From an uncultured archaeon (GTDB lineage Archaea > Nanohalarchaeota > Nanosalinia > Nanosalinales > Nanoanaerosalinaceae), in NCBI GenBank assembly GCA_964633675.1, contig CAZWHR010000001.1, positions 1 to 47,421 of the forward strand: a stretch of DNA of 47,421 bases, in the 5' to 3' direction. Positions within the stretch are counted from its first letter, which is position 1, and every line of letters starts with the position of its first letter. The notes below the pieces were generated by a model. It was not told the DNA's origin. It did no database searches and worked only from the letters and a program-made list of their open reading frames with translations. The translations under genes and the position numbers were made by a program. This document shows positions 11,804-40,359 of this stretch, piece by piece.

Positions 11804-11823
11804 TAGGAGGTGTGAAAGAAAAA

Positions 11824-12993
11824 ATGAAAAGAAAGATTAAGGCGCTGACGGTGATGTTGCTGATAGCATTGGCTATGCCGACAGTTTTTGCGCAGGAGGA
11901 TGCTAATGCTAGCAAAAGCGCCACTGTAGGCGCTGGAGATGAGGAAAGGCTTCATTTTGAAGTTCCGGACGAGTTCCAAGACAAGGAAAGCTTTAGGACT
12001 GTATTGAGACTGGAGAGTGGCAGGTCCATACTAGTAGAGAAATCACCTCCCCTGACCGATAGGACCTGGATAGGGCAGTTCGTGAAGATAGGAGGTCCTG
12101 ACAGCAACAGGGTTGTTGACCCCAATACACGCGTAATCTATCAGGTGGTTCCCAACGAGCAAAAGATAGCTATAGGCGTAGTGAAAGGATCTCTGGATGA
12201 ATCTCACTTCTATATAACCATTCCCTCTCTCTCCGCAAATGCGTATCCGAAACCGGTACAGGACGAGTCTCCCATTGTAGTCTCTCCAAAGAGATGTGAC
12301 AGTGTGCTGGTCACCCGTCCGGTAGAAGAAGGAGAGGTATTCAGATACCTCTCAGGCTTCCCTTGTAGAGTGCTTTCCGCCAGGGGAGGAGTTCCTGATA
12401 GAACTGTTTCCGCTCTACTTGGTGAGAAGGTGGAGCTAGGCCAATTAGAGGAGGGCGAGGTGGTGCAGTTAGATTTCCAGAACAGCAAAAACCTTAGGAA
12501 CGTCAAGATAACAGCTGGAGGCAGTGTGGAGGATGGCGCTATAACTATGAACCAGGTAGATGAAGAGGAATTAGATAGGGAGAATATAGGAGATGTAAAT
12601 GAGGAGGTTGTCTCGTACTTGAGAGCTGATCTCGAAAATATAGAGGATTCGGATATAAGGAACGCATACTTCACCTTTTCGGTTGACAAGGATAAAGTGG
12701 ATGCTTCAGCTGAGGGGGAGGTTGTCATGATGAGATATCGCGATGAATGGCGCGAATATACTGCTAGGCGGATAGGGGAGACTGACGACAAGTACCTGTT
12801 CCTAGCAAGCACTCCCGGAATGTCATACCTAGCTATAGCGGTAAAAGAGGTAGATACAGATGTGTCCGATTTTAAGGTGGGAATAATTACATTGCTTGTT
12901 TTTGCAACGGTGCTGGTAGTTGGAGGTGTGTGCTGGGCTCGTCGAAAGAAGGAAAAACGTAGAGATGATAGAGGTGGTGAGGATGCAGCATAG
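11824..12993 (+). CDS. secreted protein (389 aa) with C-terminal PGF-pre-PGF-like module, TM anchor and basic tail
   Basis: GGAGGTG at 11806-11812 and ATG at 11824. The track start at 11800 is a TTG overlapping the upstream stop. Signal peptide MKRKIKALTVMLLIALAMPTVFAQ. The C-terminus is ...LASTPGMSYLAIAVKE...ITLLVFATVLVVGGVCWARRKKEKRR. Confidence 0.75.
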   Translation: MKRKIKALTVMLLIALAMPTVFAQEDANASKSATVGAGDEERLHFEVPDEFQDKESFRTVLRLESGRSILVEKSPPLTDRTWIGQFVKIGGPDSNRVVDPNTRVIYQVVPNEQKIAIGVVKGSLDESHFYITIPSLSANAYPKPVQDESPIVVSPKRCDSVLVTRPVEEGEVFRYLSGFPCRVLSARGGVPDRTVSALLGEKVELGQLEEGEVVQLDFQNSKNLRNVKITAGGSVEDGAITMNQVDEEELDRENIGDVNEEVVSYLRADLENIEDSDIRNAYFTFSVDKDKVDASAEGEVVMMRYRDEWREYTARRIGETDDKYLFLASTPGMSYLAIAVKEVDTDVSDFKVGIITLLVFATVLVVGGVCWARRKKEKRRDDRGGEDAA

Positions 12994-15900: not shown

Positions 15901-16762
15901 TATATACACCGGAGTCTCTGTAGAGGACAATAAGGGCTGGAACATCTCGGACCGGCTGGAGGTTGAAGTCAAGGTCATGTTTGATACAGGAGACCAGTAT
16001 TCCAGGTCGATCCAGTATTCGTTCCCTGTGGAGAACCTTTCGGAGGATACCGAAGTAGGTTATATAAGTGCTCTTGTGAACCTGTCCGGAAGTTCCAAAG
16101 GCATTCCTGCTGGTGTATTTACCATAATAGCTAACACATCTTCATATAATCAGCGCATCTTAGGCAAGGTTAATAGGATTTTCAACACCAAAATTTCCAA
16201 CGGTACAGCCAGCGTTAACATTGGCAATGTCTCTAGAGGCGAACGCATAGATGTAAACTTTGAGTCCAATGTCACCGATTCTGCGCTGGTATCTGTTGAG
16301 TTCACTGCTGAAAACAACATTTCAGACGCAGGATTGGATGTTTCAGAGCTGGATGAGAAGCCTGAGGGTGTGGAACCTCCTAACGAAAGTCTAATCTCAG
16401 ATTACTGGCATGTAATACCTTCTAATATTTCTGAAGAGGATGTAAGAGATGTTGAATTTGTATTTGAGGTCTCAAAGGACAGGGTTGGTAGTATAAAGCA
16501 TCTGGAGGATCGAGCAATACTTCTTAAGAGCAGCGGAGGAGAATGGGTGGCTCTGGATATGTCGATGGTTGCGGAGACTGAGGACAGTTTTGTTATAGAA
16601 GCAAGTTCTTCTAGTTTGTCCTATCTTGCGGTGGCTCTGAAGGAGGATATATCTCAGAATTCTGACTATAGTAGCTTTCTATCGATTAATGCCTTGGTTC
16701 TCGTTATACTAGTTTTTGTTGTCTGCATTATTCTTGGCAGTAGAATATATGGAGGGGATTAA
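12983..16762 (+). CDS. giant secreted glycine-run protein (1259 aa), putative beta-helix, with C-terminal PGF-pre-PGF-like module and TM anchor
   Basis: GAGGTGGTGAGG then ATG at 12983, overlapping the upstream stop (12991-12993). The track start at 12920 is a TTG inside the upstream gene. Signal/anchor WKAVAILLLVLSFTAISASA. The C-terminus is ...SSSSLSYLAVALKED...LSINALVLVILVFVVCIILGSRIYGGD. Confidence 0.8.
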   Translation: MQHSFREPMDSSEALTRLWKAVAILLLVLSFTAISASAPANLDNPAIDEAVNVTPPVELSVRYSHPRITNNNIIFFRIWDNNTYSRIGSCRVKSGSRCGVNWTNLKPGSSYRYKAMVRVGRNLSRSETWRFTTKPTPPPESLNCQCVTSGSHETGEVSFDFSCGRDPDRVKLIGGEGGWKDPSSFLPYSVDVEKHNASMNETIRSEFMLQRRNGSRVVGIDRKTCSAELRHPKESSDTNISGPDYPDRDTPDWALCKNPEKCLIVNGTEKSLHGIQNYKKVLVINGGVLHVTDYREGGGKLVLASDSIYVDSKSRIDAEGRGLPGGESPICYPDRDKPKIGRNGTGISEGEGGGGASGKTHTPVERKRSDVGAGGGGGGHAARGVHGDPSHNQNLCAGGLRDASCWAFGPKAGRGGRPYGSRYGSKNFLGSGGGAGGCGALADIPNTKSGPGGRGGEGGDGGGAVTLKARDVIIEGVIDADGEEGGAGEDGRMPVESFDEDRWDPVKGTAGGGGGGGSGGGIKIIGKKVDIPGSLTAKGGEGGRGGSENIFLNSTPEDDNREVRSFGRRMEGRLLPYSLVSGISNTNSRQGGAGSGGRIKIFSERTIRADHTLGNKEHPFYKGINNPIIDSLGTLIGYEAIPYNRKRGTFYSDDIKYKEPQISPFVVSESAPDLVAGNRSSTVSGDKIYDEVRVVNGSTLRVRDFEKGDNTTGRLNIKANTVVVDEDSRIVADGSGYSPGSGPGAPTSKRGNGGAYGGLGYFNPEKVGSGRTYGTQSLMEISRGSGGGGGSGGGAVDIRAREIEVKGTISSKGKNSSDGGGSGGGVMVIGENVRLDNASARGGGAGGGTGLSIGDQAGGGGGGRIKVFAEHLSGNQRFSVSGGGSEIFESKGTIWKESIDYPDVNTSILDDIVLTPGASFDVFAQVSGEPILASRGAVVPSACNVTVKDRDGNAETYRMDMDKQFGDREEAQCIYTGVSVEDNKGWNISDRLEVEVKVMFDTGDQYSRSIQYSFPVENLSEDTEVGYISALVNLSGSSKGIPAGVFTIIANTSSYNQRILGKVNRIFNTKISNGTASVNIGNVSRGERIDVNFESNVTDSALVSVEFTAENNISDAGLDVSELDEKPEGVEPPNESLISDYWHVIPSNISEEDVRDVEFVFEVSKDRVGSIKHLEDRAILLKSSGGEWVALDMSMVAETEDSFVIEASSSSLSYLAVALKEDISQNSDYSSFLSINALVLVILVFVVCIILGSRIYGGD
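14030..15640 (+). repeat. glycine-run / short beta-strand repeat region
   Basis: Runs of G4-G7 alternate with short hydrophobic strands (AVTLKARDVIIEGVIDADG, GGIKIIGKKVDIPGSLTAKG, GGRIKIFSERTI, GAVDIRAREIEVKGTISSKG, GGVMVIGENVRLDNASARG, GGRIKVFAEHLSG). Two similar lead-in segments are VLVINGGVLHVTDYREGGGKLVLASDSIYVDSKSRIDAEGRG and VRVVNGSTLRVRDFEKGDNTTGRLNIKANTVVVDEDSRIVADGSG. Confidence 0.6.
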
Positions 16763-26907: not shown

Positions 26908-27732
26908 TCAGTAGTCAAGTTTTTCCTCCTTACCTACTTCTGTGGAGAATTCTCTGTCGACATCTGTAAGAGAATTTGTTGTAGTTATACCCTCTGCTCG
27001 GATATTTCCGTAGTAGATATAGGTATCAAAGTCGGTTCCCTGGCTAGAATCACCTTTAATGAAGTATACCCGTGCATCTGAACTTCCGCAGTCTGTGACA
27101 TTGTAGCTAGATTCTTCAAGAGCCTCCTGATCTTTCACTATCCTTAGATCATCGCAGTTAGACTGAAGTTTCCCTTGACTCATTAGAGAATCGGTATTTA
27201 GTCTCACAGAGGTCACTATAGAGCCGTCATTGGGGCCAGTGACCCTTATTTGCCTTCTATACTCCCAGTTTATGTCCCACCATTCCTGTCCCGCCCTGCA
27301 GAGATTTGAGAACGTTGTCCTGGAGTCCAGAATGTCCATTTCAACGTTATATACCGTTCCTGAGGTGAAGTTGCCATCCATTGAGACATTGAGGAAACCT
27401 GATTCTCCGGGTTTCAGATAGTTTCCTTCCAGGGAGACCGTTCTGGAAGAGAAGTTCCTGTCCAGCCTTCCGCCCCGGTATATAAGCAGTTCTGCCTTTC
27501 CTGATTCTATGGTAGCGTTACCCTCATTTGAAAAATAGATGGAAAGATCCTGTCCGTTACAGCTTATGCTCTCTACCTCTAGCTCTTCCTCTACCGCTTC
27601 CGATAGTCTTGTTGTTATCTTCTCCTGCTGGGTGTTGAGGAAGTATATGGCACCGCTTGCTAGAGAAATCACAAGCACAAGCATTAGAACGGCAGTTATT
27701 ACTGGAGTTATACCTTTTTCTTTATTCGTCAT
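26908..27732 (-). CDS. pilin-like protein (class III signal peptide) with C-terminal DUF2341-like domain
   Basis: MTNKEKG|ITPVITAVLMLVLVISLASGAIYF (ATG 27732). The C-terminal half is WWDINWEYRRQIRV...CDDLRIV...YIYYGN, as I recall the DUF2341 signature. Confidence 0.65.
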   Translation of the reverse strand: MTNKEKGITPVITAVLMLVLVISLASGAIYFLNTQQEKITTRLSEAVEEELEVESISCNGQDLSIYFSNEGNATIESGKAELLIYRGGRLDRNFSSRTVSLEGNYLKPGESGFLNVSMDGNFTSGTVYNVEMDILDSRTTFSNLCRAGQEWWDINWEYRRQIRVTGPNDGSIVTSVRLNTDSLMSQGKLQSNCDDLRIVKDQEALEESSYNVTDCGSSDARVYFIKGDSSQGTDFDTYIYYGNIRAEGITTTNSLTDVDREFSTEVGKEEKLDY

Positions 27733-27786
27733 ATAGTGCAAATTTGGCTCTGGAGAGTTAAAAACATTTACCACCCATTTTAAGGT

Positions 27787-29010: not shown

Positions 29011-31347
29011 TCAGCAAACCCTGTCAGTCAGAGTGAACCTACCATCATCAAAAGATATCCGGGAGCAACCTCTATCTATCTCTATATCGGTAGCTGAACC
29101 TATATCTGAAGAAGAACCAATCACTCTCTCCATATCTGAGGCGATCTCTCGGTACTGACGTACATCAGAAACGGCCCTTGTAGGCTTCACTACATCGTCC
29201 GCTGCTCTAGCCTTCATATTTGAGAAAGCTCCGGAGGAATCCTCACTTAGACCTGCAGGAGCCCCTCCAAATATTGAGATATCTCTATTAACTTTTCCGG
29301 ATGAGATATTAGCCAAAAAAACCATATCTGTGGTTGTAACATATTGATCGCGAATTTCATTTTTTCCAAGAGCTTTCTTGTAGAACTTGACCTCGTCCAT
29401 ACTTCCATTAAATCCTCTTCCAAGATCTACTGTGTCATCCTCCTGTTTAAGATTGCCTTTTATATCTCCTGTTCCATCTATTTCTCCGTCCAGGAAGATT
29501 GACATGTTAGAGCCTCTACTGTCGTATACCATGGCTACATGATGCCACCCAAGATCTAGAGAGGATAAATCTGTCGAACCTCTTACCACATTGCCTCTTC
29601 CGCTTTCGTTTCTGAATCTTCCTTCAAGCAGTATCCTATTCGAATCCTCCACAATCTCCAGTGAAGGAGTGCTTTCAGGATACTGTACTAGGCCTACATC
29701 TCGAGTATAATCTTGGGCTGTTGCGTTAGCTTTAAACCAGAGGGAGACTGTGAAAGATCCTCCTTTGAGTTCTATTCTTGGAGATTCCTCTATAACAGCA
29801 TAACCCTTCTCAAGGTCTAGACCGAGTTCAAAACGGCCTACATCCCACTTTGATTGGTCCTCCAGTCTTCCATTGAACACACCATCGCTGCTGTTGAATA
29901 TACTGCCTCTACCTCTATCCAGAGGGAACCGGGAAGTGAATCCCTTTGGTTCATCATAGTTCAGGCTGTCACATGGCCCTTTTATCACGTGCGGTCTGAC
30001 AATATCTTCTTCAACAACCACCAGATCGCTACAGTCTTCCCTTAGATCCATCTCTCCAAGGTTGAGGGATAGATTTATAGGGTGGTTAGGTAGGAACTCT
30101 CCTGAATGATCCTCCACAGATACTTTCTTCTTGGTACTCCATCCATCAGATAGCTTAAAGCTTCCTTCTTCTTCCATTCGGGACAAACTTGCCTTCGGGG
30201 GTTCTGTGTGCCTTCTGATGGCTGATCTGCTCACTCCGCCTCTTCCAATTATATAATCTAGATAGGGAACTGTTACCTCTCTACTGGAGGATCCTAGGCC
30301 GAAGGAGAATTCTCCGCCACTAGCTTCTCCTATATATTCGTCCAGTTCAGAATCTATTCCTGTAGTATCCGTAGTCAGGATAAGGCTCTCTCTTCCAGGG
30401 TTCAGCGCTGCTATATAGGGCAGGCTTGTTCCCGATATAGTTCCGGAAAAGGTATCGCCGTTGGCATTTATAGCTTTCTGATCTGTGGTATTGGCCTCCC
30501 AGTGAGTCATCACGTTGGCGTTTGAGGCGTACCAGAGGGGAGTTGATATCGAAAGAGTTACAGGACCTTCTCTTCTTATAAATGGATTAGAATCAAATAG
30601 GCGGAAACTATTCCCTGAATCAAACTCTAGAATCGTGTATATAGGTCCTTCATCCACCTTTGTAATATCGGATCTCTCGATAATCCTTCCCTCGGGAGCA
30701 AGATCCCTCAGACCTTTCCTCCGTGCCTCTACAAAACCTTTACCGCCTTCAGCACTCCCTATCTTCAGTCTCACTAGGCTGTTCTCCAAGACCTTTTTCT
30801 CGGAATCCCACTCTAGATCCGTGTGGTATACAGGTTTCTCAATATCGCTGTTTCCGTAGTAGAGATTGTATCTATCTCCTGCAGTGTAGAGAAACCATAT
30901 CTTCGTATTTTCAGTGTTACAGGTTCCTTCCTCTATTTGGAAGGGGATCTGTCTACCATTTCTCCCGATTCTAAGGTCTTTGCAGTTTTCTCGCATTTTA
31001 CCGTCTTCTATGAGCGCTGAGGTATTAACGGTCATAGAAAGAGGATATTTGTCCAATTTTAGACCTCTAACAGCATCTATCGATATAGCGCGTCTAAATT
31101 TCCATTCCTCGCTGTACCAGAGGCTATCAAAGCTCCGGGCTACGCTTTTAAACTGGGATACAGCCACACTTGAGCTACTCTGATCGTACTCTATGTCTTG
31201 ATAATCATCCAGTATATTCATAGTTATGGAGAGAGACCCGGCTACCAGTACAACGGTTATTATGAAGAACTGCGCCTTCCTATTCCTGCAAATATCCCTG
31301 ATGCCTCTGAATATATTTCGAATGATAGGAATCACTGGAACCACCAC
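29011..31347 (-). CDS. giant pilin-like adhesin candidate (778 aa): class III signal peptide, DUF2341-like domain(s), LamG/ConA-like domain
   Basis: GTG start at 31347, with no ATG before the TM. ...NRKA|QFFIITVVLVAGSLSI. The DUF2341-like segment is WYSEEWKFRRAISI...CKDLRIG...YNLYYGN. The LamG-like segment is FTVSLWFKA...GWHHVAMVYD...SIFLDGE...FNGSMDEVKFYKKAL. Confidence 0.65.
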   Translation of the reverse strand: MVVPVIPIIRNIFRGIRDICRNRKAQFFIITVVLVAGSLSITMNILDDYQDIEYDQSSSSVAVSQFKSVARSFDSLWYSEEWKFRRAISIDAVRGLKLDKYPLSMTVNTSALIEDGKMRENCKDLRIGRNGRQIPFQIEEGTCNTENTKIWFLYTAGDRYNLYYGNSDIEKPVYHTDLEWDSEKKVLENSLVRLKIGSAEGGKGFVEARRKGLRDLAPEGRIIERSDITKVDEGPIYTILEFDSGNSFRLFDSNPFIRREGPVTLSISTPLWYASNANVMTHWEANTTDQKAINANGDTFSGTISGTSLPYIAALNPGRESLILTTDTTGIDSELDEYIGEASGGEFSFGLGSSSREVTVPYLDYIIGRGGVSRSAIRRHTEPPKASLSRMEEEGSFKLSDGWSTKKKVSVEDHSGEFLPNHPINLSLNLGEMDLREDCSDLVVVEEDIVRPHVIKGPCDSLNYDEPKGFTSRFPLDRGRGSIFNSSDGVFNGRLEDQSKWDVGRFELGLDLEKGYAVIEESPRIELKGGSFTVSLWFKANATAQDYTRDVGLVQYPESTPSLEIVEDSNRILLEGRFRNESGRGNVVRGSTDLSSLDLGWHHVAMVYDSRGSNMSIFLDGEIDGTGDIKGNLKQEDDTVDLGRGFNGSMDEVKFYKKALGKNEIRDQYVTTTDMVFLANISSGKVNRDISIFGGAPAGLSEDSSGAFSNMKARAADDVVKPTRAVSDVRQYREIASDMERVIGSSSDIGSATDIEIDRGCSRISFDDGRFTLTDRVC

Positions 31348-33485
31348 GCTGAATCCACTACATATGGTGTTGAGAATTCTCCTTGGATGTTTCCTGAATA
31401 TGTAAGTCCTGATGCTGACGAACCTATTGAAAGCGTCTCTGTGAATCTTCTTCTATCTGCAGAGGACCGCATCAGAACGGCCTTAAGCAGAGCAGTATCA
31501 TCGTCTCCCAGATCCACGTTCCCCGAGAAGAACACTTTGCCGTTCCCCTGTTGGACTCCTGAACTCTGAACGAGAGAGCCTACGCGATTTTTAACCTGTC
31601 TCTCAATATAGGTCCAGTTTGATCCGCTGGCCCTAATCCTGAATTCTACTCCATCTACATCCACCTTCTCGTTATTCTGGTGTATGCCTTCGCTGCTGTA
31701 TCCTGATCCTGTCCCGAGTTCGCTGTCGTTGAACCTGTTGTTGCGGTTGAAATCAAAGTTGAAATATTCAAAATTATTGTCACAGGAGGAATCTCTGTTT
31801 GTAGCTAGAACCGAGTATTCTATCCCTCTAAAGGAGAAACTCCCATTGAAATAATTGTTGCTAGAGTCACAGTTTGTGTCTGGAGCTCCAGAAGGTCTAT
31901 CTATACTCTTCAAAGACACATTAAAGCTACCTGCCTCTTTGTCCCATCTCCATCCGGGCATGTATAGTATGTTCCTCTCTCCTATAATCTTACCCCCGTG
32001 GAAATCTCTAAAACTGTAGTCCGCAGATGCTGAGAGCTTTAGGGGATATGCATCTTTCACAGTGTAGAGGTTCCCTGTTACTGAAACTTTTTCCCCTTTT
32101 CTCAATTCTTCTACCTCCGATCTGTCTGTCTGTATCTCTACAATATCTTCCTGGGAGGAATTTACAGTCACATTCTGGCCTCTGAGGCTCATGTTAGCTA
32201 CTGCATATTCCCAGTTACTTTCCTTCGGATGGAAGCTATAACGGGATTGATCTACAGAGATATCTATAGAGCTGTAGTAGTCTCTAGTTAATTCCCCAAT
32301 TTCCTCTGAGCTGAACCTGTTAACATCTAATCCTCTATCAAGAGGTAGATCCCTCCATTTTAGGCCTATATCATTCTGTAGGCTGCCTTCAAATCTGTCT
32401 ATGTCCCAGTCCTGTAGATCAAGCATCTCTATGAGAACATTGTCTTGAGAAAGGAACGATTTTATAGTCTCATTATGTATATCAAGAAGTTTGGGAGGCA
32501 CATCCTTTGCCAGAAGGATGTCAGAATCTATGCGGTTGGTTGGAACAGCTTTGAAAGGCATAATACTATCTATGCTGTATACTCCGCCCATTAGTACCGC
32601 TATATCTCTCTCGTTATAGCTAGGAGTTAATCTTGAAGAGATGTTGAAACGCACAGAACTGTTGCGGTTCACCGCTATTATACCTATATCCACGCCGTTC
32701 ATCTCTTCTTTAGTCTTCCAAGTTGCACCGTCTTGCTGGAAATCACTCTCTTCTTTATCTATTTCTGGCCTGAGCTCCTGCGCACTATATGATAGATCTG
32801 TTTTGAAGGAACCGGCAGTTATTGAATCCGAGTCTACAATATTTTCATAGCTTTCCATACTGTAAAGGGTCAAAGTGTCGTTCATATATCCTATATAGAA
32901 TTTACCACATCTCTCGTTTAGGCATGCATCTAATGTGTCTCCAAAAACATAGGTGCCTTCTCTGGCGCCCTCTACTACCGAACTATAGTTTCCATCCTCA
33001 TTAAGATCGAAGCTCACTGCATTGTAAACCGTTTTCCCGTCCGGTTGGGCGTCTGAGAGCACAAAAGAGGTTCCAAGTATCTCTCCAGATCTATAGACTG
33101 AATATGGCTCTGGAAGACCGTCTGATGCATTGAGGGATGAGTTGACCTGACTACCTGCTCTGTATATGTCGGAGTCGTTCATGAGGAGGGAGACGGATAC
33201 GCTTGATGCAGGAACACCGCTTACGTACATAGAATAGGACATTCCTGTTTCCATGGAATTAGATATGCCTGAGATAATTTCCGGACTGTACCTAGCTACT
33301 GATTTGTCAAGCCACCCTGCACGGGATAGGGATTCAAGGAAATCGCTGGATCTCTTTGATATAGCAGTATTGCTCCAGTCCGTAGGGGAGGGTGCAGATA
33401 TGATGCTGCCAATATATATTAGAACAAGCAGACTGGCTATAACTCCCTCTATAGCGTACATGTATCCTTTCCTTTTCATATACAT
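31332..33485 (-). CDS. large pilin-like protein (717 aa), no recognisable globular domain
   Basis: ATG start. MYMKRKG|YMYAIEGVIASLLVLIYIGSII. Overlaps the downstream gene by 16 nt. Confidence 0.6.
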   Translation of the reverse strand: MYMKRKGYMYAIEGVIASLLVLIYIGSIISAPSPTDWSNTAISKRSSDFLESLSRAGWLDKSVARYSPEIISGISNSMETGMSYSMYVSGVPASSVSVSLLMNDSDIYRAGSQVNSSLNASDGLPEPYSVYRSGEILGTSFVLSDAQPDGKTVYNAVSFDLNEDGNYSSVVEGAREGTYVFGDTLDACLNERCGKFYIGYMNDTLTLYSMESYENIVDSDSITAGSFKTDLSYSAQELRPEIDKEESDFQQDGATWKTKEEMNGVDIGIIAVNRNSSVRFNISSRLTPSYNERDIAVLMGGVYSIDSIMPFKAVPTNRIDSDILLAKDVPPKLLDIHNETIKSFLSQDNVLIEMLDLQDWDIDRFEGSLQNDIGLKWRDLPLDRGLDVNRFSSEEIGELTRDYYSSIDISVDQSRYSFHPKESNWEYAVANMSLRGQNVTVNSSQEDIVEIQTDRSEVEELRKGEKVSVTGNLYTVKDAYPLKLSASADYSFRDFHGGKIIGERNILYMPGWRWDKEAGSFNVSLKSIDRPSGAPDTNCDSSNNYFNGSFSFRGIEYSVLATNRDSSCDNNFEYFNFDFNRNNRFNDSELGTGSGYSSEGIHQNNEKVDVDGVEFRIRASGSNWTYIERQVKNRVGSLVQSSGVQQGNGKVFFSGNVDLGDDDTALLKAVLMRSSADRRRFTETLSIGSSASGLTYSGNIQGEFSTPYVVDSAWWFQ

Positions 33486-33502
33486 CTACCCTTTCTCTTT
33501 TC

Positions 33503-34351
33503 CTAACCCCAGAACCTCATCTCTATCTTTATGGGGTTTTCCCTGATGTTTGAAAACCGGTTTACCTCTGTGACCCTATCTGCATCTTCCGGAGACCTCC
33601 TTCCCAGTCTACCCATAACTCTTACGAGCCCTACGACTTTTCCTTCCGATGCTACTATCCCCGAACTTCTCCCTTCAAACCTGTAGTTCCTGTCTCCGAA
33701 CTTCACTATCTGTGTGTCTGTGATTCCTAATGGCCCAATATCTGCAGCTTCGCTAAAGTCCCAGTCATCGCTGATATATACTTCATCGTAGCTACCGTTG
33801 TGCGATGTTACTAGGAATCTCTTTGAGTTTCCTTTGATAGATTTGGAACCATAATGTATTTCGGCATCCGCTGAATCATATGAGTCGTTGTCTGGAGCCT
33901 GGAAAGCAGAGGTCTCCGGAGGAGAGTTTGGCTTTCTGAAGCTCTTGTAGGTGTCCACAAAGGCGAATTCGGTTACCTGTAGGTTGAACTCCTTATCTGT
34001 CTTTAACAATCTTTTTATATCGCTGTAGTGGGAATTTAGTAGCGTTTTTATCTTCTCTCTGCTCAGCCCATCCTTTTCCGACTCAAGCCCTATAGTCTTT
34101 ATCTCCTTCAGAGCGTCCGGATCGCTTATATGTTTATGCCATTCTGTGCTTCTCTTGCTTTTGTTCTTCCAGAAGCCTGTGTCTTCCACTAGTTGAGTCG
34201 AGATAGACCATGCGGTTATCTCCAGCCTGTTTTGTCCTATTCCCTGCGAGAACTGCGGTATGGTGTTGAGGGCTGAGGTCACTATGAAGACGATCGATAG
34301 GAAGAACAGGAGGGCGCCCCCCATGTAATCTATATATATCTGTCCTTTCAA
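33503..34351 (-). CDS. pilin-like or N-terminally anchored protein (282 aa)
   Basis: The TTG start at 34351 (GGGTGA upstream) gives MKG|QIYIDYMGGALLFFLSIVFIV. If the ATG at codon 10 is used instead, it is a plain N-terminal TM protein. Confidence 0.5.
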   Translation of the reverse strand: MKGQIYIDYMGGALLFFLSIVFIVTSALNTIPQFSQGIGQNRLEITAWSISTQLVEDTGFWKNKSKRSTEWHKHISDPDALKEIKTIGLESEKDGLSREKIKTLLNSHYSDIKRLLKTDKEFNLQVTEFAFVDTYKSFRKPNSPPETSAFQAPDNDSYDSADAEIHYGSKSIKGNSKRFLVTSHNGSYDEVYISDDWDFSEAADIGPLGITDTQIVKFGDRNYRFEGRSSGIVASEGKVVGLVRVMGRLGRRSPEDADRVTEVNRFSNIRENPIKIEMRFWG

Positions 34352-34357
34352 AGCGGC

Positions 34358-35281
34358 TCACCCTAGTATTACCATTATTCCTATGTATATTACGGTGCCT
34401 AGAGGAACCATAAGCATTGAATGTTTGAATCCAGAAGCCACCTTACCAGATCCTATCTCTCCTGCAACTAGTCCATTGAAGAATCCCTGAACCAGAAGCA
34501 TAAGGAAGAAAAGGGATTTGTAGTAGCACAGCTTTGAGGTGGGATCGGAGTCAAGCCCCAGAGCAGGGCACAGACTGCATATATGTTCCGTTATAGTGCC
34601 CGAAGTACAGAAGTTAGGTGGTGTACCGATAAATCCTCCGCCTCCTATATCTAGTAGAGGGGTCATGACGTTAAAAAGAGCTATAAGTATACCTATAAAC
34701 AGGAAGAATATCGCATATATTATATACACCTGCTGCTGCAGGACAGCCTTCCTCTCTTTTTCTGCTTCCTTTATGGAAGATATATTTCTGGCTACAGAAT
34801 CTAGAGTTTCGGATACATCACCTCCTGATTCGTAAGACTGCATTATGATAGATATAGATCTCCTTACTAGGTCGGATTCTTTTAATCTGTCCCTGAGTCT
34901 GGTCATAACTTCCGGGAAAGGTATATCCCAGGAGAGTTGCTTTGAGGCTTTCTCAATTGAGGGATTTAGCCTGCCGTAATCAGTCTTTGTGGCGTTCATA
35001 AATGCTTCTGGCAGAGACATCCCGGATTTCCTGGATTCTGACAGATTTCTTAAGAAGCCTGGGAACTCCCTCTCTATTTCCCGGTACTTCTTGTTCTTGA
35101 AATAGATGTATATTCCGTAGGGGGTAAAGGATCCTATTATTGCTGCCAGGGTTAGTGCCCCTCCTACTGCCTTGTCTACCGAGATATATATGAAGACTGC
35201 TATAATTAGAAGCAACCCTCCAGCTCCAAATGAGGCGTACTCAACCTTCTGCGTGGTTGTAAGATCGCTTAACCATGACAT
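34358..35281 (-). CDS. type IV filament platform protein, TadC/FlaJ-half-like (single T2SSF domain)
   Basis: 307 aa. N-terminal TMs, a cytoplasmic helical domain (FPGFLRNLSESRKSGMSLPEAF...MQSYESGGDVSETLDSVA), then C-terminal TMs. Confidence 0.75.
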   Translation of the reverse strand: MSWLSDLTTTQKVEYASFGAGGLLLIIAVFIYISVDKAVGGALTLAAIIGSFTPYGIYIYFKNKKYREIEREFPGFLRNLSESRKSGMSLPEAFMNATKTDYGRLNPSIEKASKQLSWDIPFPEVMTRLRDRLKESDLVRRSISIIMQSYESGGDVSETLDSVARNISSIKEAEKERKAVLQQQVYIIYAIFFLFIGILIALFNVMTPLLDIGGGGFIGTPPNFCTSGTITEHICSLCPALGLDSDPTSKLCYYKSLFFLMLLVQGFFNGLVAGEIGSGKVASGFKHSMLMVPLGTVIYIGIMVILG

Positions 35282-35296
35282 AGTGTATCTACCTTG

Positions 35297-36181
35297 TTAT
35301 TCTAGCGGGGATGCCCCCTTTACAATCAGTATAAACATCACTGAGGCAGCTGGAAGCACTAGAAATATTGTTGCAGTTTGTATTCCTATTACTAGAGCTT
35401 CTCCGCCGCCAAGAGCAGACATTATAGTTGAAAGTATTATAAGGAATACTGATCCCACAATAACTATTGTTATGTACATTTCCACAAGCAAAGATAGTAG
35501 GTCGGTGAATTTGTCAAGCTCTCTTCTGTAATCTCGCATGAATTCTGAGGCCTTCTCACTTAGATAGGCTTTAAGATCGCCTCCAGTACTTACTATAGAA
35601 TTAAGACCCCATAAAAAGTTTTTAAATTTATCTGAGGGAGTTCTATCTGCTGAGCTATTTATAGCTTCTTCAACATCCGCTCCAAAGTTGTATACATCAC
35701 CTGCTATTTTTTTTGCCTCCTTTGATACTTCGCCGTATTCTTCAAACTGTCCAAGGAGCTTGAACATTGCTGATGGGGGATTTCCCGAGGAGGCTACTGT
35801 TGATAGGTAGAGTGTTGCAAAGGGGAGGTTGTGATTTATGTTGTCCCTCCTCCTTGCTACCTCAATAGAAGGGTATAAGTAAAATCCTGCAAATACTATA
35901 GTACTTAGTAGAGTCCCCAGAAAGAAGCCTGCGATTAATCCTGCCATTATACCGGTTATAGATCCCTGCATCAGGCCAACAAGGACTGATATTAATGGGG
36001 TGGCTATTACAAAGGTTGCGGTGGCCGACATCAGAGCTAGGCTTAGATACTGTTTTAGAGTATACTTGATATCAGCCTTCTGAAGTTCTTTTTTCGTATC
36101 CTGGAAATACTCTTCTATCAGCTCAGCATAGCTATGAAACCACTGCTCCGACTTTGAGAGATACCACTTGTGTAGGCCCAT
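35297..36181 (-). CDS. type IV filament platform protein, TadB/FlaJ-half-like (single T2SSF domain)
   Basis: 294 aa with NLPFATLYLSTVASSGNPPSAMF...STGGDLKAYLSEKA plus TM segments. Its ATG overlaps the ATPase stop by 1 nt (TAATG at 36179-36183). Confidence 0.75.
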   Translation of the reverse strand: MGLHKWYLSKSEQWFHSYAELIEEYFQDTKKELQKADIKYTLKQYLSLALMSATATFVIATPLISVLVGLMQGSITGIMAGLIAGFFLGTLLSTIVFAGFYLYPSIEVARRRDNINHNLPFATLYLSTVASSGNPPSAMFKLLGQFEEYGEVSKEAKKIAGDVYNFGADVEEAINSSADRTPSDKFKNFLWGLNSIVSTGGDLKAYLSEKASEFMRDYRRELDKFTDLLSLLVEMYITIVIVGSVFLIILSTIMSALGGGEALVIGIQTATIFLVLPAASVMFILIVKGASPLE

Positions 36182-37962
36182 TATAAAACACCTTCTCTCT
36201 CCTCTACTTTCTTCATAACTTCTTCGGGCCGGTCATAATAGTTAGAGATTATCCTTGCGACCTCTTTGTAATGTTTGATATCGTTCTTCAGCATCCATTT
36301 GAGGATTTTCTCCCTCCTTAGAAGTTCTTCTTGAACTTCCCTAGGGGTTGTGCCGTGTTCCTCAGAGATCTTGTGGAGAATATAAGACTCGTTAGGGTTC
36401 TCAAACTTGTCATCTGATGCATCCCACGTGAATATCCGGTTTACTAGAGGCTTGTCATCTTCTTTGGAATACCCTTCAAACTCGTAGATGTTATCCACCC
36501 TTCTCAGATATTTTCCCCTCCTCCTTGATCTCTTCATAAATACTATTAGGTCTAGATTCTCAATGAGGGATGGAGGTAACTCTATGGGTTTGGTTGTAAG
36601 TCTATCCATAACTTTCTGTAGGCTTGAGGCGTGTATTGTGGACATGCCGGGGTGTCCGGTAGCTATTTGCTGGAATAGTATATAGGCCTCCTCTCCACGC
36701 ACCTCTCCAACAATTATGTAGTCAGGTCTCTGCCTGAGGGATTCCTTGAGCAAATCGTCCATAGTAACTTCGCCTGTCTGGTGCTCACCGAAACCGAATC
36801 CCTCCCTAGAAACCTCTGGAACCCAGTTAGGATGTGGTAATCTTAATTCGGGTGTGTCCTCTATAGAAACTATCTTTAGCTCGGGTCTGATAAACAGAGA
36901 GAGCGAATTCAACATTGTAGTCTTTCCGGAGGCTGTAGCTCCAGATATTAGCAGTGATTTGCCGTTCTCTACTCCCATCCACAGATATGCCATCATCTTT
37001 GGGCTTATAGTACCGTACTCTAGGAGATGTATGGGTGTCAGAGGTTCTTCAGTGAACCTTCTTATAGTGAAATTGGTTCCTCTCCTGGCTATATCAGTCT
37101 CTAGGGTTGCCTGAACTCGTGAACCATCAGGTAGAGAGCCATCAAGGAGAGGTTCCGCCATGGATATACTTCGACCGCATCTCTGCGCAAGCTTTCTTAC
37201 AAAGGAATCCATCTCGTCCGCACTCTCAAATTTTACATTCGACTGTACCGACCCTATCTCTGTGTCTCGGTGGTAGATGTATACAGGAATGTCTATGCCA
37301 TCGCAGGAGATATCTTCTATCTGTTTGTCATTCATTAGGGGTTCTATCCTCCCGAGACCCACAAAGTTTCTGTAGGCGTAATACTCTATTATATCCTTGT
37401 CCTCATCGGAGAGGTTGAATTCTCTCTCTTCAAGAAGCTCCCTGACTTTCCTCTGCATGTAGTTTTTGGCCTCTTCCTTTTTCAGCTGTTCGAAATCTAT
37501 ATCCAGCCTCTCCTTTAGCATGTCCTCTATGGTTTCAAGTATTTCCTTGTTCTCTTCCGAGAGTTCTGGTTCTATAACCTTGTATATGACGCTGTCCTGT
37601 TCCTCATCGTAGGTTATATGGGCCCAAGCAAATACCTTCTCATCGTCTTTTGGGTCATTAGGAATTAGGGGATACTTACGTTCAATTCTCTTTTCTTCCT
37701 CTTTATCTTCCTCTTTTTTCTTAGCATCCTCTATCCAGTCTGTATCTCTTTTTTCCGGGTGTAGACCTATCTTCTCTGTATCTGTGTGGTCTAAAATATC
37801 TTCCTCCTCTTCACTTTCCTCTGATTGGGGGCCAGATATATCCGAATCACCTTGTATAACTATCTTTCCATTATCTATCTCCGCAGACTCCTTTTCTTCT
37901 TCCTCCCTACCTTCTTTGGCTCTTCTAAGCCTCTTTATAAGCTTAAGCATGTTGACTGGCAC
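36181..37962 (-). CDS. type II/IV secretion-family ATPase (archaeal PilB/FlaI/TadA-like) with about 100-aa acidic N-terminal extension
   Basis: Walker A GATASGKTT, Walker B/Asp box RQRPDYIIVGEVRGEEA, His box GHPGMSTIHA. The GTG at 37962 abuts the upstream TAA; the ATG at 37950 is the alternative. Confidence 0.9.
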   Translation of the reverse strand: MPVNMLKLIKRLRRAKEGREEEEKESAEIDNGKIVIQGDSDISGPQSEESEEEEDILDHTDTEKIGLHPEKRDTDWIEDAKKKEEDKEEEKRIERKYPLIPNDPKDDEKVFAWAHITYDEEQDSVIYKVIEPELSEENKEILETIEDMLKERLDIDFEQLKKEEAKNYMQRKVRELLEEREFNLSDEDKDIIEYYAYRNFVGLGRIEPLMNDKQIEDISCDGIDIPVYIYHRDTEIGSVQSNVKFESADEMDSFVRKLAQRCGRSISMAEPLLDGSLPDGSRVQATLETDIARRGTNFTIRRFTEEPLTPIHLLEYGTISPKMMAYLWMGVENGKSLLISGATASGKTTMLNSLSLFIRPELKIVSIEDTPELRLPHPNWVPEVSREGFGFGEHQTGEVTMDDLLKESLRQRPDYIIVGEVRGEEAYILFQQIATGHPGMSTIHASSLQKVMDRLTTKPIELPPSLIENLDLIVFMKRSRRRGKYLRRVDNIYEFEGYSKEDDKPLVNRIFTWDASDDKFENPNESYILHKISEEHGTTPREVQEELLRREKILKWMLKNDIKHYKEVARIISNYYDRPEEVMKKVEEREGVL

Positions 37963-38385
37963 TTATGACCCCTCCACAGTTATCTTGTTGTCCTGAAGGG
38001 TTATGGTTGCGGTCTGGAAGTCGTTGCTTACTTCACCTTCAAGCTCATACCTGTCCTCTAAACCATTTAGATTGCTACTTACATATGCGCCTCCACCTGC
38101 TAGGACTGCTACACCTCCCTGTTGGAATTCTATGATGTAGTCTTCGTCAGCTGCAGACCCTGGGAGGTTAAAGTTAATGCTTCCCTGGGTTCCGGCTTTT
38201 GCTAGTTCAACCACATGTAATGATACAAGATCAGCAAGCAACTCTCTCTGATCCTTCAGAGCTTCATTATTTACATCTCTTCCAAAAGATTCAAAAGCCA
38301 CGAGGAAACCTATAGCTATCGCTATTCCAAATCCAAATATTATTACCTGTTCAATTACTCCGTACTGACCCTTTCTGCGTCTCAT
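37963..38385 (-). CDS. small pilin (class III signal peptide), 140 aa
   Basis: MRRRKG|QYGVIEQVIIFGFGIAIAIGFLVAF. Confidence 0.75.
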   Translation of the reverse strand: MRRRKGQYGVIEQVIIFGFGIAIAIGFLVAFESFGRDVNNEALKDQRELLADLVSLHVVELAKAGTQGSINFNLPGSAADEDYIIEFQQGGVAVLAGGGAYVSSNLNGLEDRYELEGEVSNDFQTATITLQDNKITVEGS

Positions 38386-38389
38386 TAGT

Positions 38390-39037
38390 CTAAGATATTC
38401 TCACTAAGACCTTCCTAACTACAAGAGGCTCCCCAGTTACACCCCCGCCCTCTATAACTTCTTCACCGCCTTTTTCTATAGTTATCTTTTTTTCTCCTCC
38501 TGCCGCATTAAGGTTGCCGTCTCTCTCCAACTGTATCAGGTATGCCTTTCCTGCACTGGGGTCACGAAGCTGACGGTATTTCAGCTTGTAGGTGGTCTTG
38601 TATTCATCTCCCTGTAAATCTGCTTTTCCTATAATTACGCCGGGTTTGTCCTTGCCCTGTGTCCCCGCTTTCCCTCCTAGTCCTGCTTCTTTTATGCCGT
38701 TCATGTCGTTCTCGTTCAGTGGAACCCAGCTGTCAGGAGATACATATGCTGCACTGGTAACTGTGCTGTACGATATAGAATTGTCAGATACGTTTATGTC
38801 TAGGAATCCCTCCCCTAAGTCGAATTCTATAGTGCTTGATCCTCCTCTCCTTGCTGCCTTACGTATCTCTCCTGCTATGTTGTTCATCTTCTGAAGAGAA
38901 GACTCCAGCTTGTCGGTGTCCTGCTGTTTCTGTAGAAGAGGAAGGCCCCAGGTGTATGCTGAGCTTATGCCTGCCACCATTATGCCGGCAAGTATTACTG
39001 CAGTTACCACTCCCGACTGAGCTTTTCTTTCTATCAT
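38390..39037 (-). CDS. pilin (class III signal peptide), 215 aa
   Basis: MIERKA|QSGVVTAVILAGIMVAGISSAY. Confidence 0.75.
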   Translation of the reverse strand: MIERKAQSGVVTAVILAGIMVAGISSAYTWGLPLLQKQQDTDKLESSLQKMNNIAGEIRKAARRGGSSTIEFDLGEGFLDINVSDNSISYSTVTSAAYVSPDSWVPLNENDMNGIKEAGLGGKAGTQGKDKPGVIIGKADLQGDEYKTTYKLKYRQLRDPSAGKAYLIQLERDGNLNAAGGEKKITIEKGGEEVIEGGGVTGEPLVVRKVLVRIS

Positions 39038-39137
39038 GGGAGATCACATTCCGTATTATAGTTAATGGTAAAGGCTGGTTAAAAAAGATTCCCAATAAAT
39101 AGAGTTTAAGATCAAGAAAATCGCTGTATTTTAGATA

Positions 39138-39659
39138 TTATCTCTGTCCTGCTTCACAGGGTTTCCCTCGGCTAAGTTCTTCTTCATCGGTGAACACAAA
39201 GTCCACTTCGTATCTTTTACCAACCTCCATGGTTGAGTCCAGATCTATTTCATAGAGAGCTGAATCCCCTGGCGAGGAGAAATCTTTATTATTTGTCGCA
39301 TTAACACCGGGGCTAGTTCCCCTATCAGTTGAGAGTGATAGGCTAGTTCTTGTTAGCCGAGGATCGATGTTTCCTGTTGAAAACTCGCTTATGTCCATGT
39401 CTACAGGATCTAGATCGAGTTCGGTACTACCTGAGTTCTTGAAGAACACGCTTACTACTCCAGAACCTCCTTCGTTGAAACACCTCAGATCCTTGATCTG
39501 TGCATCTCTATTAGCTATGGACTCCCCTCTTTCTTGAAACTGTGTCTGAAGGCTTTGCATCCATACATAAGCTCCTCCTGCAGCTGCAACAGTCATCATC
39601 AGTAGTAGAAGTATTGCTATAACTGCGGTGATTCCTTTCCTGTTTCTGAAATTTATCAT
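39138..39659 (-). CDS. pilin (class III signal peptide, archaeal flagellin-N/DUF1628-like), 173 aa; candidate major subunit
   Basis: MINFRNRKG|ITAVIAILLLLMMTVAAAGGAYVW. It is the first pilin gene in the operon and is followed by the only sizeable intergenic gap (100 nt). Confidence 0.7.
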   Translation of the reverse strand: MINFRNRKGITAVIAILLLLMMTVAAAGGAYVWMQSLQTQFQERGESIANRDAQIKDLRCFNEGGSGVVSVFFKNSGSTELDLDPVDMDISEFSTGNIDPRLTRTSLSLSTDRGTSPGVNATNNKDFSSPGDSALYEIDLDSTMEVGKRYEVDFVFTDEEELSRGKPCEAGQR

Positions 39660-39662
39660 AAA

Positions 39663-40250
39663 TCACCCTTGGTTCTGCCGTGAACCCCTACGGTTCCCGG
39701 ATCTATTAGACCTCCTTGAGCTAGACCTGTTGCTCCGGGACTTAGAACTACGAGACTGAGAAGATTTGGAAGCTCTTTCTGAAGCCTGAAGTCTTTTCAT
39801 TCTCTTTTCCAGCTTCTCTATACTATCATTAATAGTTCCTAGGCCTTCAAGCATCTTCTTGTTAGTGTCCTCAAGACTGTTCATGGTTTCTGCTATTGGG
39901 TCGACTAGGTTCTTCGAGAGGTTGCCTGATACGTCTTCTTCCAGAGATGCTTCTGATGCATCTTCTAGTAGTTCCATGAAGTCCTGTATGGAATCCGCTA
40001 CATTGTCCATTTTGTTTGTCAGTTCCTCTACAGAGTTATGCAGCTGATCTGTGGAGTTAACCATGTCGTTGACCATTTTCTGGTTGGCCTTCATTATGTC
40101 AAGGATATCTCTAGTAAAGTCACCCCTACCTCCACCCTTCTGCTTCTCAAGCTCATCTATACGTTTCTCAAGTTTTCTTATTGGACCCATAGGGATTACT
40201 TCGTATTCTTCCGACCCATTATCACCGGATAGCTCTACTTCTTCGGACAT
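39663..40250 (-). CDS. acidic coiled-coil protein with Ser/Arg-rich basic tail, unknown function
   Basis: AAGGAG 9 nt upstream of the ATG at 40250 (the track start at 40259 is a TTG). Heptad-like segments are IRKLEKRIDELEKQ, MVNSTDQLHNSVEELTNKMDNVADSIQDFMELLED and NDSIEKLEKRMKRLQ. The tail is SKSSQSRSSKSRSNRSSSRRSNRSGNRRGSRQNQG. Confidence 0.6.
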   Translation of the reverse strand: MSEEVELSGDNGSEEYEVIPMGPIRKLEKRIDELEKQKGGGRGDFTRDILDIMKANQKMVNDMVNSTDQLHNSVEELTNKMDNVADSIQDFMELLEDASEASLEEDVSGNLSKNLVDPIAETMNSLEDTNKKMLEGLGTINDSIEKLEKRMKRLQASERASKSSQSRSSKSRSNRSSSRRSNRSGNRRGSRQNQG

Positions 40251-40359
40251 TCTAATCAACTCCTTGGATTACCTGCATCCACAGTTACCAGTTTATGGAA
40301 GAGCGCTATTTATAAGTTTCCCCGCTGTTGGAACCCTTTCCCCTTTAGAACCATCTCTA

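Follow-up and report, generated by a model that had tools for sequence, protein, structure and literature searches.

Architecture and probable function of a type IV pilus operon with three enlarged, modular pilin-like proteins in the Nanohaloarchaeota

The stretch of DNA analysed here (contig CAZWHR010000001.1; hereafter the window) is a complete contig of 47,421 bp from the metagenome-assembled genome (MAG) of a nanohaloarchaeon, with a GC content of ~45 %. On its minus strand, ten consecutive open reading frames (ORFs) at 29011-40250 form an operon for an archaeal type IV pilus. In their order along this strand, they encode proteins of 198/195, 173, 215, 140, 593, 294, 307, 282, 717, and 778 aa, and one further pilin gene lies outside the operon. 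The features are listed below from the upstream end; herein, the predicted cleavage site within a class III signal is marked by a slash.

40260..40359, minus strand: upstream spacer with the TATA-like sequence TTATAAATA at 40315-40307, ~60 nt before the ATG, and AAGGAG at 40265-40260, 9 nt before the ATG.
39663..40250, minus strand: coiled-coil protein (CCP), 195 aa, with an acidic N terminus, a central coiled coil, and a Ser/Arg-rich basic tail.
39138..39659, minus strand: PilA-like pilin, 173 aa, class III signal RK-G/ITAVIAILLLLMMTVAAAGG.
39038..39137, minus strand: long spacer, 100 nt, with oligo-T runs at 39120-39114 and 39086-39081 and the TATA-like sequence TTAACTATAATA at 39064-39053.
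38390..39037, minus strand: probable minor pilin, DUF7289-like, 215 aa, class III signal RK-A/QSGVVTAVILAGIMVAG.
37963..38385, minus strand: probable minor pilin of the DUF7266 family, 140 aa, class III signal RK-G/QYGVIEQVIIFGFGIAIAIGF.
36181..37962, minus strand: assembly ATPase (PilB/VirB11 family), 593 aa; its N-terminal extension of ~110 aa is acidic and rich in Lys.
35297..36181, minus strand: N-terminal half of the platform (TadB-like), 294 aa, T2SSF at 1.8e-16, aligned to positions 13-248 of a 555-position ArlJ model.
34358..35281, minus strand: C-terminal half of the platform (TadC-like), 307 aa, T2SSF at 2.1e-16, aligned to positions 197-380/465 and 287-460/555 of ArlJ models.
33503..34351, minus strand: probable enlarged minor pilin, DUF7287-like, 282 aa, class III signal MK-G/QIYIDYMGGALLFFLSIVFIV.
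31332..33485, minus strand: probable, greatly enlarged minor pilin of the DUF7288 superfamily, 717 aa, class III signal KRK-G/YMYAIEGVIASLLVLIYIG.
29011..31347, minus strand: modular pilin-like adhesin candidate, 778 aa, class III signal RNRK-A/QFFIITVVLVAGSLSI.
26908..27774, minus strand: satellite pilin outside the operon, 288 aa, class III signal KEK-G/ITPVITAVLMLVLV, located between the genes of the RFC large and small subunits.

An earlier note on this DNA had described ten tightly packed minus-strand genes at 29011-40250, three close junctions, and almost no spacers. All ten ORFs lie there, and the three junctions can be read directly: TAATG at 36183-36179, in which the A is common to the ATPase stop and the platform start; TAA followed by GTG at 37965-37960, where the 140-aa pilin stops and the ATPase starts; and a 16-nt overlap, GTGGTGGTTCCAGTGA, at 31347-31332 between the 717-aa and 778-aa genes. 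The statement on spacers holds for those of 0-17 nt and fails for a sole exception, the 100-nt gap at 39038-39137 after the 173-aa pilin gene. For gene 1, the mechanical ORF start is a TTG at 40259; the ATG at 40250 (MSEEVEL...) agrees with the orthologues, which start with MSDEVEL..., so the end coordinate given earlier was right. The GC content of the operon (0.43-0.45) is in line with the rest of the window. The upstream spacer contains a putative operon promoter and ribosome-binding site. In the long spacer, the oligo-T runs directly follow the PilA-like gene and the TATA-like box precedes the next ATG by ~20 nt. This spacer may serve as an internal promoter or an attenuator, parting the major-pilin genes from the machinery and setting their ratio. 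Scans of the window for tRNA and Rfam families found nothing. Plus-strand ORFs of 83-123 aa that overlap the operon were rejected as spurious shadows of the minus-strand genes, being without support.

The operon is conserved beyond the window. Relatives of the 717-aa protein lie in the same operon in contigs L002 (458 kb), L004 (205 kb), L006 (GCA_034190605.1, Ca. Asbonarchaeaceae), L007 (GCA_022729275.1), and L012 (Ca. Asbonarchaeum danakilense), and the whole operon is syntenic in at least four divergent contigs of Nanohaloarchaeota. A narrow profile search of genome contigs returned three loci only, from Ca. Asbonarchaeaceae, Ca. Asbonarchaeum danakilense, and another MAG. The shared order starts with a chaperonin, the CCP and two PilA-like pilins (in varying order), proteins of ~220 and ~140 aa, the ATPase, and two T2SSF proteins; it continues with proteins of ~275, ~720, and 780-1080 aa, the RFC large subunit on the opposite strand, a ~270-aa pilin, and the RFC small subunit. 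Protein identities to the relatives range from 85 % for the platform down to 29-37 % for the large proteins. Synteny over such a range indicates that the arrangement is old and under selection. In L002, the identical 16-nt overlap and the 'MVVPV' start are kept despite an identity of 38 % in that protein. In L002, L004, and L007, a chaperonin gene (Cpn60_TCP1) precedes the operon and the gene of a P-loop NTPase (RFC large subunit) follows it; in the window, the chaperonin is not adjacent and an LPG_synthase_TM gene lies upstream instead.

The assembly machinery consists of one ATPase and a split platform. The ATPase contains a T2SSE domain (PF00437; 1.3e-34, 120 bits vs. a cut-off of 24.9) and a PilB3_C domain (PF23989; 6.1e-10, 39.6 bits vs. 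a cut-off of 27), and PilB3_C is also found in the ATPases of the relatives. Its best NCBIfam match is the FlaI model NF058587 (1e-132), with a score below the equivalog cut-off (443.6 vs. 550 bits). Among PDB sequences, the secretion ATPase 2OAP of Archaeoglobus fulgidus matches best (3.3e-120), ahead of FlaI (1.8e-84) and CpaF (2e-44). The ATPase is 40-49 % identical to PilB proteins of haloarchaeal plasmids. An exact look-up of the 593-aa sequence gave no record, probably owing to a differently called start. Each platform gene encodes one PF00482 domain (~60 bits vs. a cut-off of 25.2), and the two proteins correspond to the N-terminal and C-terminal halves of the ArlJ/UpsF models. For the FlaI-like ATPase Halo_Nar1_01710 (1249 aa) of Ca. 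Nanohaloarchaeum antarcticus, a published supplement gives an intein with a LAGLIDADG endonuclease (PMC11291902); its gene number is near that of the coiled-coil gene NAR1_01690, and the 593-aa ATPase of the window is without an intein.

Class III signals were searched for with a FlaFind-like filter, which requires [KR][GA] within 45 aa followed by an uncharged hydrophobic stretch, on 137 six-frame ORFs of at least 60 aa. Nine of the 137 pass: six operon proteins, the satellite protein at 26908-27774, and two false positives, namely, an ordinary Sec-type signal and a multispanning membrane protein. The [KR][GA] motifs are kept in orthologues of just 35-50 % overall identity, with the conserved sites reading RKG/ITPVIA (173 aa), [KR][AG]/QSQVVTAV (215 aa), RKG/QY.V.EQV (140 aa), KG/QISIEY (282 aa), K[GA]/Y[ML]HAIEGVI (717 aa), and RKA/QFFIITVV (778 aa). 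The six proteins that pass are the same six of ten for which such a signal had been claimed in the earlier note, and the pilin-like nature it gave to the three large proteins is borne out by their conserved class III N termini. Equally, its composition of secretion ATPase, T2SSF platform, and class III pilins is recovered in full by one T2SSE gene, two T2SSF genes, and the filter. Among the window's other ORFs of at least 110 aa, there is neither an A24 prepilin peptidase (PibD/EppA) nor an archaellum accessory protein, as it had also stated.

The relation of these proteins to known pilins becomes apparent from a comparison with haloarchaea. The Halobaculum halophilum plasmid NZ_CP058531.1 (L010), which was retrieved with the ATPase, shows the order Pilin_N, ATPase (989 aa), fused T2SSF (679 aa), DUF7287, DUF7288, DUF7261 (weak), DUF7266, and DUF7289. 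An all-against-all hhalign matrix of the window families vs. the haloarchaeal families is strictly diagonal. Four accessory proteins appear to map one-to-one onto haloarchaeal minor pilins, with 215 aa corresponding to DUF7289, 140 aa to DUF7266, 282 aa to DUF7287, and 717 aa to DUF7288. As on the plasmid, the platform is directly followed by a DUF7287-like protein, a DUF7288-like protein, and a large third protein. The plasmid differs in its larger ATPase and its larger, fused platform, which is split into two genes here. In the window, the DUF7289-like and DUF7266 genes are shifted upstream of the ATPase and a CCP is added. The DUF7287-like protein is enlarged from 186 to 282 aa and the DUF7288 protein from 196 to 717 aa, and the DUF7261-like third protein is replaced by, or has diverged into, a DUF2341/LamG protein.

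The small pilins fit this scheme to different degrees. The 173-aa pilin matches the archaellin/type IV pilin N-terminal domain TIGR02537 (2.5e-7, 30 bits vs. a cut-off of 20) and, weakly, UpsA; its best hhalign match is to haloarchaeal Pilin_N proteins, and a comparison with PDB sequences gave nothing significant. Two paralogous copies are present in L002 and two in L004. Because of the TIGR02537 match above the cut-off and the duplication in relatives, it is the best candidate for the major subunit. The 215-aa pilin matches DUF7289 over its N-terminal ~80 aa (5.1e-5, 23.4 bits), below the cut-off of 27. All of its orthologues match DUF7289 specifically, one of them above the cut-off (27.3), and the best hhalign match of the family is haloarchaeal DUF7289 (E 5.9e-4). 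For the 140-aa pilin, the window's own protein has no DUF7266 match; two orthologues (36.2 and 27.8 bits; 44 % identity) exceed the DUF7266 cut-off of 27.6 over nearly their full length, and DUF7266 is the best hhalign match of the family.

The three large proteins follow directly after the platform. The 282-aa gene occupies the same position as DUF7287 in L010, and its protein matches DUF7287 at its N terminus only, with a subthreshold score (4.9e-4). Four of the five family members match DUF7287 specifically, all below the cut-off, and an independent C-terminal hhalign match connects the family to a haloarchaeal DUF7287 protein (E 3.4e-4). In its orthologues, the site reads KGQISIEY, in agreement with the QxSxE motif known from class III signals of the Epd type.

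The 717-aa protein has no match in Pfam or NCBIfam, and its family profile found nothing significant among PDB sequences. A word-indexed search of a 5.8-billion-protein collection gave three close relatives and an exhaustive profile search of 1.84 billion proteins gave 91 representatives; a further homologue search with a 25-sequence profile returned only four proteins already known. The family profile hidden Markov model (HMM) alone does not match the haloarchaeal DUF7288 proteins, and the link needed profile-profile and iterative searches. With an alignment of two haloarchaeal DUF7288 proteins (which match DUF7288 at 2.4e-65 and 7.3e-31) and ~340-aa intermediates, the 717-aa family gives an hhalign probability of 99.6 % (E 6.8e-25), accompanied by a second, collinear match at the C terminus (E 7e-4). 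Furthermore, jackhmmer started from a haloarchaeal DUF7288 protein reaches the 717-aa protein, and six distant family members match PF23959 directly. The protein can thus be placed with DUF7288 at the level of the superfamily only.

A structural model of the 717-aa protein was calculated with AlphaFold. A 4-sequence alignment led to an unusable model with a predicted local distance difference test score (pLDDT) of 43.5; a 25-sequence alignment, which was used instead, gave a pLDDT of 87.9 and a predicted template modelling score of 0.83. The predicted layout comprises an N-terminal helix (7-28), a short helical region, and then mostly β-structure. Its regions are a pilin-like core (~1-110 and ~646-717), an α/β domain (~315-440), and two β-rich modules (~111-314 and ~441-645). 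Herein, the α/β domain is common to the 340-aa relatives, and the terminal strands match the C terminus of smaller family members. The model agrees with the view that two modules have been inserted into a pilin-like core. Foldseek comparison of the whole model with the PDB and BFVD gave no match at E <= 0.001, with TM-scores <0.12. The sequence contains 15 N-glycosylation sequons (N-X-S/T), compared with 8.2 +/- 2.6 in shuffles, and four conserved Cys; both fit an extracellular protein.

Some relatives of the 717-aa protein reach 1040-2058 aa and carry LamG insertions, which indicates that the scaffold tolerates the gain of modules. The DUF7288-type scaffold seems to be a hot spot for acquiring adhesion modules. 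Laminin_G_3 is found in four members of the scanned set (P0026, P0030, P0033, and P0034; best 5.9e-64). In L014 (Logan SRR24236061, 840-4118), a ~350-aa relative with a weak DUF7288 match is encoded close to a T2SSF gene; a pentapeptide-repeat gene on the opposite strand and the gene of a 164-aa protein separate the two. On this contig, the arrangement of platform, small pilin, and DUF7288-like protein is seen also beyond the Nanohaloarchaeota family.

The 778-aa protein has two DUF2341-like regions (~77-190 and 403-461, found by blastp matches to the 288-aa family) and a LamG/concanavalin A (ConA)-like domain at 523-665 (Laminin_G_3, 3.8e-17). Its own DUF2341 match (0.003, 18.4 bits) is below the cut-off of 23.4, and the L004 orthologue is above it (28.1). 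Its relatives are named 'DUF2341 domain-containing' and 'LamG-like jellyroll fold' proteins by NCBI, and PDB sequences gave nothing significant. Comparison with the DUF7261-like protein of L010 by family HMM and hhalign gave no significant similarity; the two have only their position and the N-terminal motif [KR]AQ[FM]F[LI]I in common. The satellite pilin combines a PilA-like domain akin to the 173-aa pilin with a C-terminal DUF2341-like module, as judged from blastp, which aligned it with the 173-aa family and with the DUF2341 region of the 778-aa family. It matches Pilin_N at 0.0032, and its orthologue matches DUF2341 at 0.0011. The satellite gene is syntenic in L002, L004, and L006; at this position, L007 encodes a 393-aa protein with an InlB B-repeat (Flg_new_2) domain instead.

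The locus was compared with known filament systems. With the haloarchaeal/euryarchaeal PilB-PilC loci (clade 2, 'PilB4-type', of Makarova et al. 2016), it has in common a related ATPase, a PilA-type pilin, DUF7266, the DUF7288 superfamily, and probably DUF7287 and DUF7289. With the Epd pilus of Methanococcus maripaludis (clade 1), where several minor pilins are essential, it shares two TadC-like genes, several minor pilins, large class III DUF2341 proteins, a QxSxE-like motif in the 282-aa family, and, in four of the operon's six pilins, Gln at position +1 relative to the predicted cleavage. The EppA peptidase, the FleN/MinD ATPase, and a major pilin of ~70 aa, all features of Epd, are absent from the window; conversely, PilB3_C on the ATPase and a pilin set of the haloarchaeal DUF72xx type are found here. 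The likeness to the bacterial Tad/Flp system lies in a CpaF-like ATPase and a platform split into TadB/TadC-like genes, with Flp pilin, TadV, TadZ, RcpA secretin, and TadE/F/G lacking in the window. Membership in the bacterial Tad system was rejected, with TIGR03819 (TadA) at 175 bits vs. a cut-off of 373 and no other Tad component in the window. Owing to the PilB3_C domain and the DUF72xx pilin set, the locus appears nearer to the euryarchaeal/haloarchaeal type (clade 2) than to Methanococcus Epd or bacterial Tad. The label 'Epd/Tad-like' of the earlier note is thus apt in a loose sense only, and the gene set, which it could not match to a described system, does fit published loci; the giant pilins appear to map to DUF7287, DUF7288, and DUF2341/LamG class III proteins.

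Pilus loci of this kind have been published for the Nanohaloarchaeota. FlaI, FlaJ, and archaellin-like proteins were found in the proteome of Ca. Nanohaloarchaeum antarcticus by Hamm et al. 2019, who proposed a pilus for host interaction and not an archaellum (PMC6642349); pilus-like proteins in this proteome are also mentioned by Hamm et al. 2024 (PMC11291902). According to that study, Nanohaloarchaeota and other cluster-2 DPANN archaea carry two conserved type IV pilus loci, also with CCPs, and 'Locus 1', with a CCP, CpaF, TadC, FlaF/PilA, chaperonin ('GroEL'), and P-loop NTPase, is proposed for host interaction (PMC11291902). Furthermore, Tad-like clusters in another nanohaloarchaeal order were discussed by Zhao et al. 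2022 (PMC9563170). The operon has in common with 'Locus 1' the lineage, a CCP, a CpaF-type ATPase, two TadC genes, and PilA/FlaF-like pilins, and the flanks of L002, L004, and L007 agree. As judged from gene content and flanks, it is most likely this 'Locus 1'. The three large class III proteins and the relation to DUF7287, DUF7288, and DUF2341 are not discussed in the accessible sections (PMC11291902).

The CCP belongs to the same comparison. It has neither a signal peptide nor a transmembrane segment, and its matches in Pfam/NCBIfam are generic coiled-coil matches alone. A protein encoded amid the pilin genes of L002 and L004 is 63-64 % identical to it, and the CCP appears to correspond to the CCP genes of Hamm et al. 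2024 (PMC11291902). Its position varies, being before both PilA-like genes in L002 and between them in L004. From its sequence, the CCP, a conserved accessory, appears to be cytoplasmic. A cytoplasmic CCP would fit poorly with its published likening to a viral attachment fibre.

We consider it probable, at roughly 0.65, that the product of the operon is an archaeal type IV pilus for adhesion and not for motility, that it belongs to the euryarchaeal/haloarchaeal (PilB3/PilB4-like, 'clade 2') type, and that it is primed and capped by modular minor pilins. A prepilin peptidase encoded elsewhere would cut after the conserved [KR][GA], and the ATPase and the split platform would assemble the shaft from copies of the 173-aa pilin. 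The remaining five pilins would form a priming complex, start the assembly, and remain at the distal tip, by analogy with bacterial HIJK/PilY1 and PilA-B-C of Streptococcus sanguinis. Herein, the 282-, 717-, and 778-aa pilins would have been enlarged in the Nanohaloarchaeota by inserted or appended β-rich and lectin-like modules. With the LamG, DUF2341, and inserted modules, binding surfaces would be displayed at the tip, and glycans on the envelope of the haloarchaeal host would be their most plausible targets.

Precedents exist for the individual elements of this model. Large DUF2341 class III proteins of Methanococcus/Thermococcus clade-1 loci were predicted to be tip adhesins by Makarova et al. 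2016 (PMC4858521), and PilB1-C1 of H. volcanii, in an operon with clade-2 pilins, contributes to adhesion (PMC6491452). In bacteria, HIJK (with PilY1) and PilB/PilC of S. sanguinis show how minor pilins prime assembly and cap the filament (PMC9934059, PMC8179133). The latter further resemble the proteins described here in that a pilin moiety carries large added modules for adhesion, a ConA-like lectin among them; in the PilA-B-C tip complex, the lectin module is borne by PilC (PMC9934059). These bacterial systems differ in lacking a detectable sequence relationship and in carrying appended modules, whereas those of the 717-aa protein are inserted within the core. A role of the large proteins as minor-pilin or tip adhesins is the best-supported inference. 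The earlier note had suggested the same for the three giant proteins. Its central idea, a candidate apparatus for cell-cell attachment, is a reasonable reading and not a new one, being already in the literature with the host-interaction pilus proposed by Hamm et al. in 2019 and 2024.

Several points weigh against the model of an adhesive pilus with a modular tip. The filament, the tip location, and the ligand of these proteins are all predictions from gene sequences; minor pilins could also be located at the base rather than at the tip. The prepilin peptidase is absent from the window, which is one contig of a MAG. The assignments to DUF7287 and DUF7289 rest on subthreshold matches that include the hydrophobic N terminus. 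The DUF7288 link is transitive via the ~340-aa proteins, with the family HMM alone missing haloarchaeal DUF7288, and no similarity was detected between the 778-aa protein and its positional counterpart in haloarchaea. Lastly, the equivalence to 'Locus 1' is drawn from gene content and flanking genes, not from a comparison of sequences.

Three other functions were weighed. The filament might mainly serve the uptake of DNA or other host material, as a competence-type pilus, with the DUF2341/LamG proteins needed for uptake; this is compatible with adhesion and overall rather unlikely. A screen for transformation-defective M. maripaludis yielded insertions in pilus genes of epd, and one of the genes hit in this locus encodes a DUF2341 protein (PMC10133366). 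In addition, Nanohaloarchaeota are without nucleotide biosynthesis, and an import of DNA mediated by pili has been proposed for this group (PMC9563170). However, components for binding or translocating DNA (ComEC-like, nuclease) are missing from the window, a retraction ATPase is likewise absent, and LamG is a carbohydrate- or protein-binding fold and not a DNA-binding one.

Still less probable is a machinery without a long pilus, by which the large class III proteins would be inserted and displayed on a short pseudopilus or on the cell surface; the proteins of 717 and 778 aa would then be membrane-proximal binders. The model for this is the Sulfolobus bindosome (Bas) system, which handles sugar-binding proteins. 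Very large globular proteins with a class III signal are typical substrates of this system, and the ATPase and the platform partially match BasE (1.6e-56) and BasF (2.6e-16). Yet, these scores are far below the cut-offs (BasE 192 vs. 1000, BasF 59 vs. 1300), a PilA-like pilin that is duplicated in relatives heads the operon, the accessory proteins are minor-pilin families that accompany PilA-type pilins in haloarchaea, and no solute-binding or ABC transporter genes are adjacent.

A reduced archaellum for swimming, as suggested by automatic FlaI/FlaJ/archaellin annotation, by the FlaI model as the best NCBIfam match, by the ArlJ matches of the platform halves, and by weak Arch_flagellin, ArlF, and ArlG matches of the pilins, is very improbable, as all of these scores are under the curated cut-offs (Arch_flagellin, PF01917, 15.3 vs. 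29.5 bits; ArlF and ArlG at E 0.06 and 0.02), no KaiC-like ArlH, ArlF/G stator, or ArlCDE/X is encoded in the window, the ATPase has a PilB3_C domain and resembles the nonarchaellar 2OAP more closely than FlaI, the platform, unlike ArlJ, consists of two proteins, and the same conclusion was reached for the Nha. antarcticus genes (PMC6642349). Both the bindosome and the archaellum thus score below the curated cut-offs. The earlier note had likewise favoured a pilus over an archaellum, which agrees with the FlaI score below the cut-off, the lack of an archaellin at the Pfam threshold, and the lack of ArlF/G/H/CDE.

Outside the pilus operon, the window contains a second cluster of giant surface proteins on the plus strand (6674-16762) with 1709, 397, and 1280 aa. 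The 1709-aa protein has a signal peptide, a PQQ-type β-propeller, and FG-GAP repeats; the 397-aa protein has a signal peptide and a C-terminal transmembrane anchor, and so has the 1280-aa protein, which is without a Pfam match. In a genome of small size, these proteins are further candidates for cell-cell contact. Tandem genes of TldD/PmbA-family metallopeptidases on the minus strand (2373-5021), followed by an M29 aminopeptidase-like gene (5049-5990), are unrelated to the pilus. The housekeeping genes of the window are typically archaeal (Pus10, RFC small and large subunits, and DUF655).

To our knowledge, all cultivated DPANN archaea require physical contact with a host, and we know of no identified first-contact molecules. 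The system described here is a recognisable archaeal type IV pilus and not a novel machine; the operon is conserved across the Nanohaloarchaeota, its orthologues were reported to be expressed in Ca. Nanohaloarchaeum antarcticus, and both its lineage-wide presence and its proposed role have been published. New is the probable identity of four accessory proteins as counterparts of haloarchaeal minor pilins, by which previously unannotated genes obtain testable identities. Likewise new are the description of three accessory proteins out of five as apparently hypertrophied pilins of modular build, one of them with a lectin-like LamG domain, and a confidently modelled 717-aa protein without a structural relative in the PDB. 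The orthologues of the 717- and 778-aa proteins are hence singled out for the study of localisation, binding, and host range. As a tentative proposal, for which the odds are clearly lower than for the adhesive pilus itself, an ancestral set of five minor pilins might have been turned into a modular host-recognition tip complex in the Nanohaloarchaeota. Herein, the DUF7288 core would serve as a scaffold for inserted β-rich modules and, together with the DUF2341/LamG protein, would decide to which haloarchaeal host a cell can attach.

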